Origin: a virus | Taxonomy: Duplodnaviria > Caudoviricetes | DNA: 51,271 bases | IMG/VR virus record: IMGVR_UViG_3300042325_000241 | Coordinates: 1-51,271 of that record | Direction: 5' to 3' (one strand) | Position numbers and translations under genes: made by a program | The notes under the pieces: model-generated | Database searches by the model: none | What the model saw: only the letters and a program-made list of their open reading frames with translations | Told to the model about the DNA's origin: nothing | Part shown: one piece after another, positions 33,412 to 51,271 of the stretch | How the letters are laid out: every line of letters starts with the position of its first letter | How positions within the stretch are numbered: the stretch's first letter is position 1

Positions 33412-33706
33412 TATTAACCTCCTCAGTTCTAGGGGCTTCACCCTCTGAAATATACTCACACGAACTATAGTGCAGGAAAACGACCTGCATACTACCTGAC
33501 ACAGTTGAACCTTCTTGAGTTACCACTAGGGGCTGATCAAGTTTTACTAAGTACCCCATCGCGGTGGAGTCACCGTGGTAATAAGGGACTAGGGGTGAAC
33601 AGATCTGCCCGTGGAGAACACTGTCTGGGTGTTCCCCAGACAGTCCCCACACATGCACTTGCGAGTACAAAGGGTAAAACTCGCAGGTGTTCAGAGTCTC
33701 AGACAT
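33404..33706 (-). CDS. Hypothetical protein
   Basis: Likely start ATG 33706 with GGAGG RBS. Confidence 0.5.
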   Translation of the reverse strand: MSETLNTCEFYPLYSQVHVWGLSGEHPDSVLHGQICSPLVPYYHGDSTAMGYLVKLDQPLVVTQEGSTVSGSMQVVFLHYSSCEYISEGEAPRTEEVNNG

Positions 33707-33863
33707 TTTTAAAGTCCTCCCATGTAAGACCATTTGCAGCGATTGCAATCCGTGCTAAAAAATCATCCAATTTTGCAGTTTCCTCAGTGGATAACGGTTC
33801 GTACTCAGGACCGTCATCTTTAAAATCACCCGTGTCAGGTATAGTCTCTTTAATCTTGCTCAT
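33699..33863 (-). CDS. Small hypothetical protein (54 aa)
   Basis: Manual translation MSKIKETIPDTGDF...LTWEDFKNV; RBS AGGAG; TAATG coupling. Confidence 0.6.
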   Translation of the reverse strand: MSKIKETIPDTGDFKDDGPEYEPLSTEETAKLDDFLARIAIAANGLTWEDFKNV

Positions 33864-34066
33864 TAATATTCTCCTTGAAAGTTGTCGTTGTCGTTTGGCG
33901 TATAGTCATCCTCATCCTCTGCGTAGGCATCAGATTTAGATTCTGCTTCCAGTGCATCTTCTGCACTGTCATCTTCAGATTGTTGATAATCTTTTTCGTC
34001 AGACTGATATGCATCCATATCATGGTCATCGTAGGGGTTTGGTTTTTTCCCGAATGGGTTAAACAT
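33863..34066 (-). CDS. Highly acidic small protein
   Basis: 23 of 67 residues are D/E; RBS AAGGAG; first gene of the leftward operon. Confidence 0.65.
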   Translation of the reverse strand: MFNPFGKKPNPYDDHDMDAYQSDEKDYQQSEDDSAEDALEAESKSDAYAEDEDDYTPNDNDNFQGEY

Positions 34067-34265
34067 GCAGCACTCTCCTTGTTTATTGGGTCAACTGGTT
34101 ACAGTTACGATGTAACCACATAGACAAATTTACAAATGTTGCCAGCAGACTGCAAGCCCAATTGACAAATATTTTGCAAATAATTACCGAAAATACATAA
34201 ATACACTTGCAGACAAGGGGTTTTATTTCCTAGAATATTTTTGCTGACTGCCTAAAGGAGTTGAA
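34067..34265. promoter_or_regulatory. Divergent promoter / genetic switch region
   Basis: Intergenic between divergent genes; contains TTGACA and TTGCAG-18-TAGAAT on the plus strand. Confidence 0.5.
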
Positions 34266-34457
34266 ATGGCTGTTAAAAAGAATGACAATGCGGATGAATC
34301 TACTACCACCATGCGTGTAAGTCGTAAAACACTGAGAATGATACAAATTATCGCAGCATGGAAGGATTTGGGTATTAGTGAGTATGTGGACCACCTGGTT
34401 AAAACCCAAGGTGCAAAGGATCTGGACGATATGAAAAAGGGTATAACTAATCTCTAG
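34266..34457 (+). CDS. Ribbon-helix-helix regulator, candidate repressor or excision factor
   Basis: TTMRVSRKTLRMIQIIAAWKDLGISEYVDHLV; RBS AAGGAG; next to attP. Confidence 0.7.
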   Translation: MAVKKNDNADESTTTMRVSRKTLRMIQIIAAWKDLGISEYVDHLVKTQGAKDLDDMKKGITNL

Positions 34458-34464
34458 TATCTAA

Positions 34465-34520
34465 ACTAACTTATAAAAGTGTTTACACTTTTATAAGTTA
34501 GTAGTCTATTTAATAGACTA
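34465..34520. repeat. Adjacent perfect inverted repeats (18-2-18 and 9-1-9)
   Basis: ACTAACTTATAAAAGTGT-TT-ACACTTTTATAAGTTAGT and TAGTCTATT-T-AATAGACTA. Confidence 0.85.
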
Positions 34521-34563
34521 GTGTATATAGTATATTAGTATATATAATAACAAATACCGTGCC

Positions 34564-34587
34564 AAAGTATAGTAAATCCACTATACT
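34564..34587. promoter_or_regulatory. Palindromic arm-type site, left of the att core
   Basis: AAAGTATAGTAA-ATC-CACTATACT; 21/24 identical to 34767-34790. Confidence 0.6.
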
Positions 34588-34667
34588 ATTTAAAATAGTC
34601 CTAAAAAGCATGTTTCCCTAACTACGGAAATGTGTGTTTTCTGGGGCTTTTCGTGCGGTTGTGGTTT

Positions 34668-34714
34668 GCGCTCGTAGCTCAGGGGATAGAGCATCGGTTT
34701 CCTAAATCGAGGGT
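34668..34714 (+). other. Candidate attP core: 5' half of tRNA-Arg(CCU)
   Basis: GCGCTCG-TA-GCTC-AGGGGATA-GAGC-A-TCGGT-TTCCTAA-ATCGA-GGGT gives acceptor 5' strand, D arm and anticodon arm; no T arm or 3' acceptor strand; 33 bp from the integrase stop. Confidence 0.8.
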
Positions 34715-34726
34715 TATCCTCGATTT
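34704..34726. terminator. Hairpin replacing the tRNA T arm
   Basis: AAATCGAGG-GTTAT-CCTCGATTT, perfect 9-bp stem. Confidence 0.55.
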
Positions 34727-34746
34727 TATCCTATAAAACAAGCACT

Positions 34747-35739
34747 TTAGGCTTTTTTGATCTTAGAAAGTATAGTAAGAACACTATACTTTTTTGTAAC
34801 ACTATCGTCTAAAACATAGTGGTCGTAGATCTTTAGGGTGGTCGTTGCGTTAGTGTGGCCCATCCTAGCGGATACCATTCTCAGGTCCGAAGTGCTCCCC
34901 AGCAGGTGTGTTGCACAGGTGTGCCTGAGGTCGTGAATACGCAGTGGTATTTTAAATCTTTTGATAAGTGGTACCCACCACCTTCGCAGGTTGTTGCGTG
35001 CTACCCTAAACCCCAGTGGACTAGTAAATATTGGGGAATTGGGAGAACCCTTTAAACGGTCCAAAATTGCCACTAGGTGATCAGATAGGGTGATAGACCT
35101 GTTTCCCCTAGAAGTCTTAACTGGGACGATTTTAGGCCCCTTCAGTTGATCGTTGTACGCTTTGTTGATATGTACCTTAGGTGCGACATAGTCGGCCCAG
35201 GTTAAACCCAGGGCCTCACCTAGTCTTGCGCCTGTGTCCAGGAGGAATAGCAGTAGTGGTTGGTAGTGGCTACCGTTGTTTAACTCAATGAGTTTAAGTG
35301 TCTGTTCGGGTGTTAGTGCTACACCCCTAGCCCTGGTGATTTTGGGTACGATGCCATAGGGTACGGGAACACCTGCAATCTTGCAGATGGTGATTAAACG
35401 CTTAATTATGCGGTGGGATTTAGAGATGGGAAACATCTTGTTTATTCTAGATACGGTAAGTTGTATATTAGTCTCTGTCATACTGTCACCAGCTAGTGCT
35501 AGACGCAGTGAGTCGATTTCTTGTTTATATCTTCTGAGGCTAGACTCGCGCACATTTCTAGATGTTAAAAACTTGGACAGTGTGTCAGAAAAGAGATGTT
35601 GTTTTTCTGACACGGAGGTCTGAGGCTTCAGGGCCTCAGCCTCCTCCCTGGTGTTGTGGTAGGATCTCACAACCTTGGAGTTTACCTTGTGCTCATACAC
35701 CCATTTGCGTTTAGCCTTGACATAAAATATTGTAGCCAT
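34747..35739 (-). CDS. int: Tyrosine recombinase/integrase
   Basis: TGARLGEALGL (R), VKT (K), HDLRHTCAT (HxxR), MGH, TLKIY (Y); start is ATG 35739 or TTG 35775. Confidence 0.93.
   Translation of the reverse strand: MATIFYVKAKRKWVYEHKVNSKVVRSYHNTREEAEALKPQTSVSEKQHLFSDTLSKFLTSRNVRESSLRRYKQEIDSLRLALAGDSMTETNIQLTVSRINKMFPISKSHRIIKRLITICKIAGVPVPYGIVPKITRARGVALTPEQTLKLIELNNGSHYQPLLLFLLDTGARLGEALGLTWADYVAPKVHINKAYNDQLKGPKIVPVKTSRGNRSITLSDHLVAILDRLKGSPNSPIFTSPLGFRVARNNLRRWWVPLIKRFKIPLRIHDLRHTCATHLLGSTSDLRMVSARMGHTNATTTLKIYDHYVLDDSVTKKYSVLTILSKIKKA
34767..34790. promoter_or_regulatory. Palindromic arm-type site, right of the att core (inside the integrase 3' end)
   Basis: AAAGTATAGTAA-GAA-CACTATACT. 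Confidence 0.6.
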
Positions 35740-35764
35740 ATGTTGGTCATACAATAACTGCCTT

Positions 35765-36199
35765 TCAGAGGTCAAGCCTCATTGTGGTTCCGTTTACATA
35801 GAAACCGAACCCACCATAATACTTTTCTAATGCGGGTGCACAGTCCAGGATGATTTTAAAACACCCCTTATTATGACAATAGTTTATTGCGTGCCTGACT
35901 AAATCTTTCCCTATGCCCTTCTTCCTAAACTCCTCAGCTACTATGAAATCATCTAGGAAGGCATAGGGTTGCCTATAGATCATTTTATCGACTAGCTGCA
36001 CTGTGATGCTGCCCAGTGGCCTACCACAATCACTGAGGTATAAAAAAGTAGGACAGGTCCCCGCAAAGGACCTGTCCAAGTAGCACCGTTTCATCTCTTC
36101 TAGAGTGGTAAAAACTGGTGCGAATTCATTCAGTAAATCCATGTAGTGTTGGTCTAGGTCATGTAGATCGAGCCTTCTGATTTTCGATGTCTTGGACAA
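35765..36199 (-). CDS. GNAT N-acetyltransferase (GNA1-like)
   Basis: LDDFIVAEEFRKKGIGKDLV, GCFKIILDC, YYGGFGF. Confidence 0.85.
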   Translation of the reverse strand: MSKTSKIRRLDLHDLDQHYMDLLNEFAPVFTTLEEMKRCYLDRSFAGTCPTFLYLSDCGRPLGSITVQLVDKMIYRQPYAFLDDFIVAEEFRKKGIGKDLVRHAINYCHNKGCFKIILDCAPALEKYYGGFGFYVNGTTMRLDL

Positions 36200-36761
36200 A
36201 TGATTGCTCCTTCAAAAAAAGTTCTTTGATATAACCTTCATTTGGTAGCATTTCGACTATTGCCAATCGCTCATGGTGCTTGAATTTAGGCACATCACTG
36301 TAGGAAACATAGTGCGCTATCTTCGCCCCTGTTACACCCAGTTGGTGTTGGATCTGTGGGTAGTAATACTTAGGAATCCAACCCCTAAGGGCTTCTGCAT
36401 GAGCACGGTCATTAGGACACTTAATCTCTAAAATAACTTCTCCATCGTCAGTGATTCCGTCCAAGCTAGCCATAAACCATGGAAAGCTTTCATGCTCCAC
36501 ACAAGCGGGAGTCATTTTTAAACCTGTCAAGTCCTCGTACATTTCGCGCACTATTGGTTCTAGGCGTTTACCCCTAGCCATGCGCTCATTCTCGTACATT
36601 TCACTAGCTATACCCAACTTACGATCCCGTAGCTCTTCTGGTTTACACCATGGATTTGCACCCATGAGTACTGCACAATCAGAACCACCTACCCCGCCCT
36701 GTCTCCACTGTAACCACTCTGCACCGCTCTGATCGAGTGTCACAAACTTGCAATTTGACAT
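36159..36761 (-). CDS. YqaJ-like (lambda Exo family) exonuclease
   Basis: EWLQWRQGGVGGSD, G.RLEP, ASLDG, LEIKCP, YYPQIQHQL. Confidence 0.92.
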   Translation of the reverse strand: MSNCKFVTLDQSGAEWLQWRQGGVGGSDCAVLMGANPWCKPEELRDRKLGIASEMYENERMARGKRLEPIVREMYEDLTGLKMTPACVEHESFPWFMASLDGITDDGEVILEIKCPNDRAHAEALRGWIPKYYYPQIQHQLGVTGAKIAHYVSYSDVPKFKHHERLAIVEMLPNEGYIKELFLKEQSFVQDIENQKARST

Positions 36762-49094: not shown

Positions 49095-51271
49095 TTAAGC
49101 CTCTTTAATGACTATTTTGGTGGAGGAACCGGAGCACGCAAGAGGGTCTAGATTTCCATCTGCAAATACTATTTTAAAAGGTGTGCAAACACAGGTCATC
49201 CCGGTGACAAGGTGCACCTCTGGTTTTGCAACATTCACAATGTCTTTAATAATCAAGTTGAAACTGTTGTTTGCACTGGTGGTTAGCTTGACCTGCACAA
49301 TATCTTTAGTGGGTCCAAACTGGTCGTGAATACCTGCCCAACCACCATCAAAGGCTGACTGCTGTAGTGGGATCACCACATCCTTTAAGTATTTGCAAGA
49401 ATCGGGAGGTGTCTCAAAGGTTAGGACTAGGTTTGCGGGTATGTTGCAGAGTGTGCCACCGCAATCAAAGGTTGCATCCACTGCGTCACTGATACATACA
49501 GCGGTGTTTGGTATTAGTCCACCACTTGTACCGGGTATATTGATGGGAATACTGGTAAACATCCCCAGGGTGAAGATACCACCAACCTCGTCTAGCTTCT
49601 GATCGCACGCCACTGCCCTAGGTGCAGGGTAGGGTTGGGAGTCCACACACCTCATATTCATGTACCAGTTTTGGTTCTGGAGTAGCTGTTCATCGGAGTC
49701 GTAGGAGTTTACCTTCTCTACGATCACGGTGGCGTACGCAGGGCTTTTTGCAGTTTTTGCAAAGGTTAGTCTTCCCCAACACTGCGCGCAACCTTGGCAG
49801 GTGAAAGACTTCCCACCGTTGATCTGTCTAGATGTTACCTTGCTACCGTTCCAATACACCGTGACCATAGCTTGTGTTTGGAAGTGGTAATCGAGCGCAA
49901 CATTTCCCACCGCATTACCTAGGCAGAATTTGACCACATAGGGTGGCTTGTGGTAGTTCGGGTAATCGGCTGGGATTGCATTAGAGGGTAGGGTGGTGCT
50001 CTGTGTTTGCACCGCAGAGTAGGGGAGGAACATGCTAGAGTTTCCAAACCCATACAGTTGGGATGTCACACTACCAGCTTGCATACCCTTGCACTGACCA
50101 CATGGGGCAGCATCTGCATCACAACCGGATTCATCACCTAGGTAGGACTCAATAAATATGTCTTGTGGTTGCTCGTTGTACGGTGCCCTAGCCACCTTAG
50201 TAGCTATGTTAGCTATGTCGTACATCACATAATCGAACATGCCCGTAGGATCTACCTGCTCAATACCATTGAGGATCAGATTAACATCAGACATCTGGTA
50301 CAGAATCCAGTCGTTCTTATACACCTCTATGTAGTTCTTTATCTGGAGTTGGCTAAACTCCTTGTCCGTCTTATTAGAGGGTTTTTTGGCATAGTCAGGG
50401 CACTGGTTGACCTTAGTCTTGTAGCTCGATGCATTCACCTTCAAGTACTTGGATGGTAGGCTTTCCCCAGAGGAGGGTTCACCCCAGGTAGTGGTGTAGG
50501 GGTAGAGTAGTCTCTTCCTAAGGTCGTAGGCGTAATCACCGGAAACAGGTGTAATGGGTTCTTCGGTTGTACCACCTACATTGCGTGTGAATGCGGGTGG
50601 TGTAAGGTCCTCATCCGTGGAGGTGAAGTAGTACACTTGCCCACCACCCATGAGTGCGGAGAAGGTGTTGTCATCACCTTCGTCCGTAACTGGGGTAATA
50701 CCGTCTGTGGTTACCGTAGCGTACACGGTGCCTGATACTAGGAAGCTCAACGACCTGGGTATTACACCAGCAGTATCGCGCATGATAGACTTTAGCTTTT
50801 TAAACTCTGTCTCACTCTTGGTGATATCCGCAGCAGTGGAGTAGTTATTCCCAATGTTGGTTTTAGAGGTGGAGATAAGGCTACCGAAACCACCTGCTTT
50901 TTGGGTGTTGCTAGTGGAGTAGCGTGTAGAGTCCTCCTCAAAGGACTTTGTTGCGTTCATTACCCTTACTGTGCCATCGTAGTTTAGGATCACCCTGGTA
51001 CCGCATGAGTGCGCGATGGTGTCTAGCAGGGCCGGAACCTCTGTTGATTGTGATGCACTGCGTAGTACCGAGTGTGGGAAGAGGTAGTCCACCGAAATAG
51101 GGTCGATGGTGATCTGTGCTTCTGTGTACCCCAGCTTTTTGAAGATGGTTTTGAACAGTGTTTCCCAAGAGGAGCATGAGGGTAGTTGGAAGTCCCCGGT
51201 GGTGAAGTTTCTCCAGAAATACCGTGCATCGACTAGGGGTAAAACCCAAATACCACTCAAATGGCTGTAAG
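49095..51271 (-). CDS. 3' part of the junction-spanning virion protein, Cys-rich C-terminus
   Basis: Continuous in frame with 1-657 across the terminal repeat. Confidence 0.85.
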   Translation of the reverse strand, partial: YSHLSGIWVLPLVDARYFWRNFTTGDFQLPSCSSWETLFKTIFKKLGYTEAQITIDPISVDYLFPHSVLRSASQSTEVPALLDTIAHSCGTRVILNYDGTVRVMNATKSFEEDSTRYSTSNTQKAGGFGSLISTSKTNIGNNYSTAADITKSETEFKKLKSIMRDTAGVIPRSLSFLVSGTVYATVTTDGITPVTDEGDDNTFSALMGGGQVYYFTSTDEDLTPPAFTRNVGGTTEEPITPVSGDYAYDLRKRLLYPYTTTWGEPSSGESLPSKYLKVNASSYKTKVNQCPDYAKKPSNKTDKEFSQLQIKNYIEVYKNDWILYQMSDVNLILNGIEQVDPTGMFDYVMYDIANIATKVARAPYNEQPQDIFIESYLGDESGCDADAAPCGQCKGMQAGSVTSQLYGFGNSSMFLPYSAVQTQSTTLPSNAIPADYPNYHKPPYVVKFCLGNAVGNVALDYHFQTQAMVTVYWNGSKVTSRQINGGKSFTCQGCAQCWGRLTFAKTAKSPAYATVIVEKVNSYDSDEQLLQNQNWYMNMRCVDSQPYPAPRAVACDQKLDEVGGIFTLGMFTSIPINIPGTSGGLIPNTAVCISDAVDATFDCGGTLCNIPANLVLTFETPPDSCKYLKDVVIPLQQSAFDGGWAGIHDQFGPTKDIVQVKLTTSANNSFNLIIKDIVNVAKPEVHLVTGMTCVCTPFKIVFADGNLDPLACSGSSTKIVIKEA
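51042..51271. repeat. Terminal direct repeat copy 2
   Basis: Matches 1-230 with 9 substitutions, corresponding to positions 52-103 of copy 1. Confidence 0.95.

Follow-up and report, generated by a model that had tools for sequence, protein, structure and literature searches.

Known 5′-type attachment sites and the present locus

Attachment sites within tRNA genes are usually of the 3′ type, for which the standard explanation invokes the need for the host promoter to go on driving the gene; exceptions, in which the integrating element carries the 5′ portion of the gene, put this explanation to the test. The present analysis deals with a candidate exception at positions 34564-34794 of the virus record IMGVR_UViG_3300042325_000241 (IMG/VR; Duplodnaviria; Caudoviricetes), the whole 51,271 nucleotides of which are hereafter called the window, where a truncated tRNA-Arg(CCU) sequence sits beside a tyrosine integrase gene in what would be the phage attachment site (attP). 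Exceptions of this kind are a known minority: of the 3919 islands tabulated by Islander, 159 have a 5′ fragment and the other 3760 a 3′ fragment (PMC4383910, Table 1). For the HTVC019P-type pelagiphages HTVC021P, 022P, 109P and 120P, 5′-type tRNA integration was described with junctions verified by PCR and sequencing (10.1101/410191), and in the HTVC010P-type phage HTVC028P the core, of 40 bp, is described as matching the 5′ end of tRNA-Asn exactly (Du et al., 2021; PMC8477408). Besides, the T7-like cyanophages P-SSP7 and S-TIP37 have their attP in tRNA-Leu sequence, and their integration, which needs both the integrase and attP, is presented as occurring without stable lysogeny (Shitrit et al., 2021; PMC8776855).

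As they are described, the pelagiphages resemble the window in an attP located just downstream of the tyrosine integrase gene, in a core identical to the 5′ end or the middle of a host tRNA, tRNA-Arg included, and in lytic-looking genomes with genes largely on one strand. They differ by their verified junctions, none being seen here, and by a marine SAR11 host in place of the freshwater planctomycete proposed below; the window also belongs to another phage type, of 51 kb, with DNA polymerase A, primase-helicase, RecT and YqaJ-like genes. The Islander islands with a 5′ fragment, as reported, share with the window a 5′ tRNA portion on the element and would share an intact gene at the far side, the window being known from the attP form alone; in the class of islands with a displaced 5′ tDNA fragment, the crossover is described as centred on the anticodon, like the one proposed here. 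Regarding the cyanophages, the described succession of integrase and tRNA-identical attP in a lytic-looking phage is again that of the window, and integration without stable lysogeny is possible for the window phage too.

The evidence is best explained, with a probability of about 0.65 in our estimation, by a working 5′-type attP at 34564-34794, which would make the window a temperate, or at least integrating, lake phage. An earlier interpretation of the same DNA, hereafter the sequence-only reading, had taken the reversed geometry as unusual; it does belong to a minority kind, but one already described in pelagiphages and islands (10.1101/410191; PMC8477408; PMC4383910). What that reading said of the geometry, conditional on integration, is right, its novelty was overstated, and the control of tRNA expression that it proposed is unsupported. 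The 5′-type geometry being rare but known, the locus adds matched clades of opposite polarity at one gene together with a link to a host, i.e. a further example and an evolutionary setting and not a new principle.

The attachment region and its match with host tRNA genes

Aligned with the Rfam tRNA model, the fragment at 34668-34714 (+) covers model positions 1 to ~45, namely the acceptor 5′ strand, the D arm and the anticodon arm with its CCT, and stops without a T arm. Its score is 21.2 bits (E 0.32) for a gathering score of 29, ARAGORN called no tRNA anywhere in the window, and the complete cloverleaf with paired acceptor stem and T arm that marks a phage-encoded tRNA gene is absent from the window. 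The covariance score by itself is insufficient to exclude chance; the tRNA identity is established by comparison with host genes and relatives, chance being excluded because 49 nt are letter-identical to tRNA-Arg(CCU) genes on host-like metagenome contigs. In addition, sister phages have a near-complete tRNA sequence where the window has the fragment.

The host genes were collected by scanning a metagenome collection with the invariant 41-mer corresponding to tRNA nt 7-47, which gave 24 loci that were sorted by their flanks; six viral records bring the total to 30 loci. Among the 24, there are 13 ordinary tRNA-Arg(CCU) genes with common host flanks and four with variant host flanks, two loci with the common upstream flank and other downstream DNA (L030, L038), two in which a related integrase, reduced to its last 38 codons, comes after the host tRNA (L039, L043), one classical attP (L024) and two window-type attP (L035 and L041, the latter being the L002 contig). 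When the 41-mer match is extended letter by letter, the block common to window and host spans 49 nt, starting 2 nt ahead of tRNA nt 1 and stopping at nt 47; over the 17 host loci, the best four (L042, L036, L034, L033) reach 49 nt and the worst 42 nt. The blocks of L035 and L041 with the host measure 48-49 nt and end as in the window. For the classical phages of the sister clade, they measure 69-72 nt, beginning at nt 7 or nt 4 and ending 2 nt beyond the 3′ end, such that in each clade one limit of the host-identity block falls no more than 2 nt from a gene end. Since recombination needs just a short overlap and core sites, a block that reaches the gene end reads, at the level of sequence comparison, as the signature of selection to rebuild the tRNA gene. 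The window thus combines an adjacent tyrosine recombinase gene with a host-tRNA block reaching one gene end, and the portion carried extends to the first base on the 5′ side, not to the 3′ end.

The integrase frame (34747-35775, -) matches PF00589 (E 1.1e-18) and phrog_1 (3.5e-44) and is intact; Arg, His-x-x-Arg, His and Tyr stand in invariant columns of the alignment of relatives, at positions which we take to be those of the catalytic residues. Its stop lies 33 bp from the fragment end at 34714, a distance that the sequence-only reading had correctly given, as it had the tRNA-Arg(CCT) 5′ half, confirmed by the Rfam alignment and the 49-nt host identity, and the 9-bp hairpin that follows it. 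The two flanking palindromes (Table 1) are 28-nt copies, 86% alike, each with an 8-bp stem around 6 nt. Both near-identical palindromes that had been noticed are thus present, but the right one lies within the last 15 codons of the integrase and not in spacer DNA. The half-sites are common to both palindromes of a given phage and lineage-specific, i.e. TATAGT in the window and TGTACC or TATACC in the equivalents of its relatives (L002, L004, L005); the paired palindromes co-vary across lineages, and the C-terminal tail of the integrase diverges between lineages precisely where the right palindrome does.

Table 1. Features in and around the attachment region, in window coordinates.
Feature	Positions	Strand	Remarks
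Small conserved ORF, 63 aa	34266-34457	+	homologues at the same place in both clades, 98% and 60% identity
Perfect 18-bp inverted repeat, terminator-like	34465-34502	+	directly after the 63-aa ORF; -20.5 kcal/mol, z -5.2
Left (P-arm) palindrome	34564-34591		AGTATAGT-n6-ACTATACT; candidate arm-type or operator site
Hairpin then T-rich run, terminator-like	34608-34635	+	reads toward the tRNA fragment and lies 33 nt upstream of it
Conserved phage-specific block	34636-34665	+	directly upstream of the tRNA fragment
Identity block with host attB	34666-34714	+	2 nt plus nt 1-47 of tRNA-Arg(CCU)
tRNA-Arg(CCU) nt 1-47	34668-34714	+	Rfam alignment and identity to host genes
Anticodon loop TTCCTAA	34699-34705	+	putative strand-exchange (overlap) region
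9-bp hairpin	34704-34726	+	anticodon-stem 3′ strand and variable region pairing with the rebuilt former T arm; TTTTAT after
Decayed remnant of T arm and acceptor 3′ strand	34715-34746	+	from alignment to the intact 3′ part of sister phages
Tyrosine integrase	34747-35739	-	330 aa from ATG 35739 (start conserved in relatives); longest frame from TTG 35775
Right (P′-arm) palindrome	34767-34794		AGTATAGT-n6-ACTATACT; within the last 15 codons of the integrase

Downstream of the fragment, 34715-34746 differs from the 3′ part of sister phages by a 2-nt gap and many G/C to A/T changes. The hairpin that arises there has arms of 9 nt (34704-34712 and 34718-34726), 100% complementary, around a 5-nt loop, with a centroid fold of -11.3 kcal/mol. 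The terminator scan did not call this hairpin with its TTTTAT, which could nonetheless terminate transcripts from the host promoter at the broken junction.

If 34564-34794 is a functional attP, the adjoining tyrosine integrase would recombine it with the host tRNA-Arg(CCU) gene by strand exchange inside the shared 49-nt block, most likely in the anticodon loop. At one junction, the host promoter and the host 5′ part would be followed by the phage hairpin and then by the integrase gene in antisense, leaving a broken tRNA copy; at the other, phage DNA and the phage 5′ part would precede the host 3′ part and the host terminator, forming the sole intact tRNA-Arg(CCU) gene. The prophage would then sit on the upstream side of the repaired gene, in a mirror image of the usual situation. 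As the host identity is confined to the 5′ part and the T arm is ruined, any crossover in 34666-34714 would leave an intact gene with a phage-derived 5′ part. The site of exchange proposed by the sequence-only reading, i.e. the anticodon loop, is plausible and the best candidate, as three attP types (nt 1-47, 7-73 and 29-73) all include this loop; the block of the most distant of the three clades, with an integrase 40% identical to that of the window, starts at nt 29, only 3 nt before the loop. On the other hand, the one junction available, that of the sister-clade contig L003, bounds the crossover only to between nt 7 and ~nt 50.

Related phages at the same tRNA gene

The integrase search matched six viral records, and a second integrase scan of viral contigs with alignment returned the same five records. 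Window-type phages amount to three, namely the window, L035 and L002 (=L041). The integrase of L002 is 79% identical to that of the window, and this phage carries the 5′ half with the identical ruined T arm; the pattern combining these two elements matched the L002 record only among viral contigs. Around the site, the three phages show ~85-86% DNA identity, and yet 46/47 tRNA positions are invariant, the lone variable one being nt 5 (T or C), for which both alleles are present among host genes. The decayed T arm and the hairpin are common to all three, the latter unchanged save one loop base, and the arrangement must therefore be old and stable. Further upstream, the block 34636-34665 is near-invariant among the three phages (~86% identical overall) and unrelated to the host upstream sequence; the stem TTTCC/GGAAA of 34608-34635 is retained in the three, with loops that vary.

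The integrases of the sister clade (L003-L007, L024) are 59-60% identical to that of the window, and at the corresponding position its phages keep nt 7 (or nt 4) to nt 73 of the tRNA, oriented to the integrase as in the window; ARAGORN calls a tRNA-Arg(CCT) in 5/6 related loci. In L004-L007, the acceptor 5′ strand is unpaired, and the T-stem differences between L004 and L005 are compensatory, with both versions occurring in host genes. L003 is a contig end with a perfect tRNA, the 5′ side of which departs from the other phages and equals the host upstream flank. It is an integrated copy of the sister clade, with host nt 1-6, a phage-type T arm and the integrase beside the intact gene, in the classical geometry. 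By joining host upstream sequence, full tRNA and integrase, L003 establishes that this family has its attachment site in the tRNA-like sequence. It was correct to regard the window site as an attP, the record being complete and the site having phage genes to its left and right. The sequence-only reading held that relatives with a full tRNA at this place would speak for a decayed phage tRNA; the sister phages do carry nt 7-73, yet as their attP, so that the site is not reduced to a mere decayed phage tRNA.

In a more distant clade (L051-L055), with integrases 40% identical, nt 29-73 of a tRNA-Arg(CCU) directly follow the integrase with 41/45 identity (L052:2519-2563), the 3′ half of L052/L053 being unscored by Rfam and the fragment resting on pairwise alignment. 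The tRNA runs there in the direction of the integrase, which means that within the family the att site has changed its orientation with respect to the integrase. The contigs L051, L054 and L055 stop 3 bp after the integrase. Altogether, these comparisons indicate that the integrase family targets the tRNA-Arg(CCU) gene, with a crossover probably at the anticodon loop. An element published by Zhao and Williams in 2002 reportedly has, going by its title, a target orientation reversed relative to the integrase; the orientation of the window tRNA is unlike it and is that of the classical sister clade.

The window clade and the sister clade have the host tRNA-Arg(CCU) gene in common, with the tRNA turned the same way relative to the integrase, and their arms, paired palindromes and small ORF are homologous; they differ in that the sister clade carries the usual 3′ portion (nt 7 or 4 to 73 plus 2 nt) and was seen integrated (L003). 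The ancestral attP could have been an almost whole copy of tRNA-Arg(CCU), of which one clade would have lost the first six bases and the other the last 26. The window clade would then have rebuilt the dead T arm as a hairpin and T run, capping the orphaned host 5′ half and shielding the integrase gene from the host tRNA promoter. Hence the tentative and, on balance, rather improbable proposal that the polarity of repair switched within one integrase lineage at one gene without the site being turned around, the working tRNA copy being left under prophage transcription. If true, prophage transcription would determine the supply of a tRNA that decodes the commonly used AGG codon, the host tRNA being held hostage, and the two clades would form a natural before-and-after pair for the origin of 5′-type sites. 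Few pairs can exist in which two sister clades with homologous integrases use opposite parts of the same gene in the same host population; such a matched pair makes it possible to ask where the transcription of a 5′-type site comes from and how polarity switches.

Besides, the exact att-site match and the integrated sister contig give this phage group, which is otherwise unassigned, a link to freshwater Planctomycetota. Upstream of the host tRNA-Arg(CCU) is a gene for an MgtE-type magnesium transporter (L029:924-1940; also L022, L025, L040 and other attB loci), the relatives of which at at least 83% identity include proteins labelled Planctomycetota at NCBI, from metagenome-assembled genomes, one of them Gemmataceae. 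The G+C content of the host flanks is 40-46%, that of the phage 45.6%. The host is likely a freshwater planctomycete, on the basis of a real junction for the sister clade and of the att match alone for the window clade. The Protein Atlas pointed to Verrucomicrobiota as the origin of the host-flank gene, an assignment that was rejected since the named proteins at at least 83% identity are labelled Planctomycetota.

Two kinds of loci from the scan are of side interest. L030 and L038 may reflect other elements at tRNA-Arg(CCU) or strain variation, and no relative of the integrase was found within 2 kb. In L039:922-1035 and L043:607-720, the last 38 integrase codons beside the host tRNA are degraded prophage remnants at the same site.

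Alternative explanations, expression and neighbouring features

Several observations weigh against a working attP. Window-type attL or attR junctions, i.e. the two ends of an integrated form, were found in 0/24 metagenome loci and 0/6 viral records with the 41-mer, and a pattern for the predicted intact junction gave no match among viral contigs. The phage 5′ half is indeed the shared block that could rebuild the tRNA, as the sequence-only reading had it, but the related junctions of window type that it called for are missing from all 30 loci. All 12 integrase relatives at E <= 1e-40 are metagenomic, none coming from a named genome, and a narrow scan of a genome collection, with just two peptide patterns of the integrase, gave one 29%-identical Lachnospiraceae match, which is irrelevant. 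Both clades further keep parts that are dispensable for repair (nt 36-47 in the window, nt 7-34 in the sister clade), hence some of the conservation has another cause, such as integrase binding. Finally, the promoter scan gave no sigma-70-like site on the + strand in the 70 nt that precede the fragment (its consensus may be unsuited to planctomycetes), and a terminator-like hairpin, 34608-34635, precedes the fragment by 33 nt, so that the rebuilt gene may be poorly transcribed. The host gene has a TAGAAT box ~20 nt upstream, with nothing similar upstream in the phage.

These same two features leave the proposed prophage control of tRNA expression without sequence support. Nor is AGG the rare codon that it had been supposed to be, since it accounts for 150/573 Arg codons in the long frames of the phage (26%) and for 79/319 in host-flank ORFs (25%), the host sample being small and redundant. 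AGG being common, the loss of tRNA-Arg(CCU) would plausibly be costly to the host.

An unlikely alternative is that of a decaying or transiently used attP, in which a near-full tRNA ancestor lost its 3′ part and integration, if any, is brief, like that of the T7-like cyanophages, and breaks the tRNA; the rebuilt copy would be promoterless and the 5′ part would persist through integrase binding or gene conversion and not through gene repair. The want of a recognisable promoter with the terminator-like hairpin upstream and the failure to find lysogen junctions, both in the 30 loci and by the viral-contig pattern, agree with this scenario, as do a gene arrangement with all genes but one on one strand and the integrase among replication genes, and the single 31.6-kb contig of run X1 that spans the attP form. 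Precedents can be cited for it as well, namely integration without lysogeny as demonstrated for a similar layout (PMC8776855) and pelagiphage cases described as simple disruption of the host tRNA (10.1101/410191). It accounts poorly, however, for nt 1-6: these lie at least 25 nt from the anticodon loop and are nevertheless exact in three phages that differ at ~14% of their flanks, the block ends at the first base of the gene, and the same six nucleotides drifted in the sister clade.

Two further possibilities appear very improbable. The fragment could be the remains of a tRNA gene that the phage once encoded and that plays no part in integration, the phage integrating elsewhere or never, for which the near-complete tRNA at the same place in relatives, with the ARAGORN call in 5/6 of the related loci, may be adduced; yet the acceptor 5′ strand is mismatched in those relatives, the same sequence is the junction point in integrated L003, 46/47 identity holds across three diverged phages despite the ruined other half, and a place flanked by the paired palindromes, beside the integrase stop, is typical of an attP. 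Just as hard to credit, the true core could be 34636-34665 or a palindrome, directed at an unrelated host target, with the tRNA fragment as a passenger. The 30-nt upstream block is nearly as conserved as the tRNA part, which speaks for such a core, but nothing like 34636-34665 adjoins any of the 17 host tRNA loci, and the integrase family is tied to tRNA-Arg(CCU) sequences down to 40% identity. The reading retained here is thus that of a working 5′-type attP.

The window stretch, or part of it, is contained in 24 lake or freshwater sequencing runs, 7 of which may be its source. The run contigs of X1, X5, X8 and X9 are 31-mer assemblies (Logan) that break at the 49-nt block in X5, X8 and X9 and are uninformative on integration; in X1, one contig runs through the site as already mentioned. 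No joints were reported in the run contigs, and the loose ends at 34671-34714 correspond to tRNAs of other organisms or to a host-type T arm on a contig ending inside the block. In run X5, over window positions 34000-35400, the phage contigs have a word depth of ~850 against 5.5 for the contig with the host-type T arm; although contig depth is a poor measure, this suggests a large excess of phage DNA over that host allele in the sample.

Regarding the phage itself, the IMG/VR record of 51,271 bases is a whole virus record with a completeness estimate of complete, and megablast of 33500-36500 gave no match to GenBank phages. The long reading frames are almost all on the - strand. The genes of the window include those for terminase, portal and tail fibres, as well as a replication and recombination block with DNA polymerase A, primase-helicase, a RecT-like protein, a YqaJ-type exonuclease and a GNAT acetyltransferase, in which the integrase gene is embedded between the RecT-like and GNAT genes. 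Since phage genes flank the site on both sides, the record holds the attP form and not a prophage end. The frames at 1-657 and 49095-51269 (-) are truncated by the record ends, and a permuted or cut circle is therefore more probable than true genome ends.

Beyond the left palindrome, the 63-aa ORF is the sole + strand gene nearby and is transcribed toward attP. Its product is a candidate DNA-binding accessory protein, i.e. an excision factor or a repressor. No credible sequence match was found in Pfam or PDB (Geminin, E 0.012; a lyase, E 1.4), and the AlphaFold model, of low confidence (pLDDT 64), has two helices after an extended stretch, from which a ribbon-helix-helix fold would be a guess only. 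This ORF converges on a predicted - strand promoter at 34565-34537, in an arrangement that resembles a small regulatory switch.

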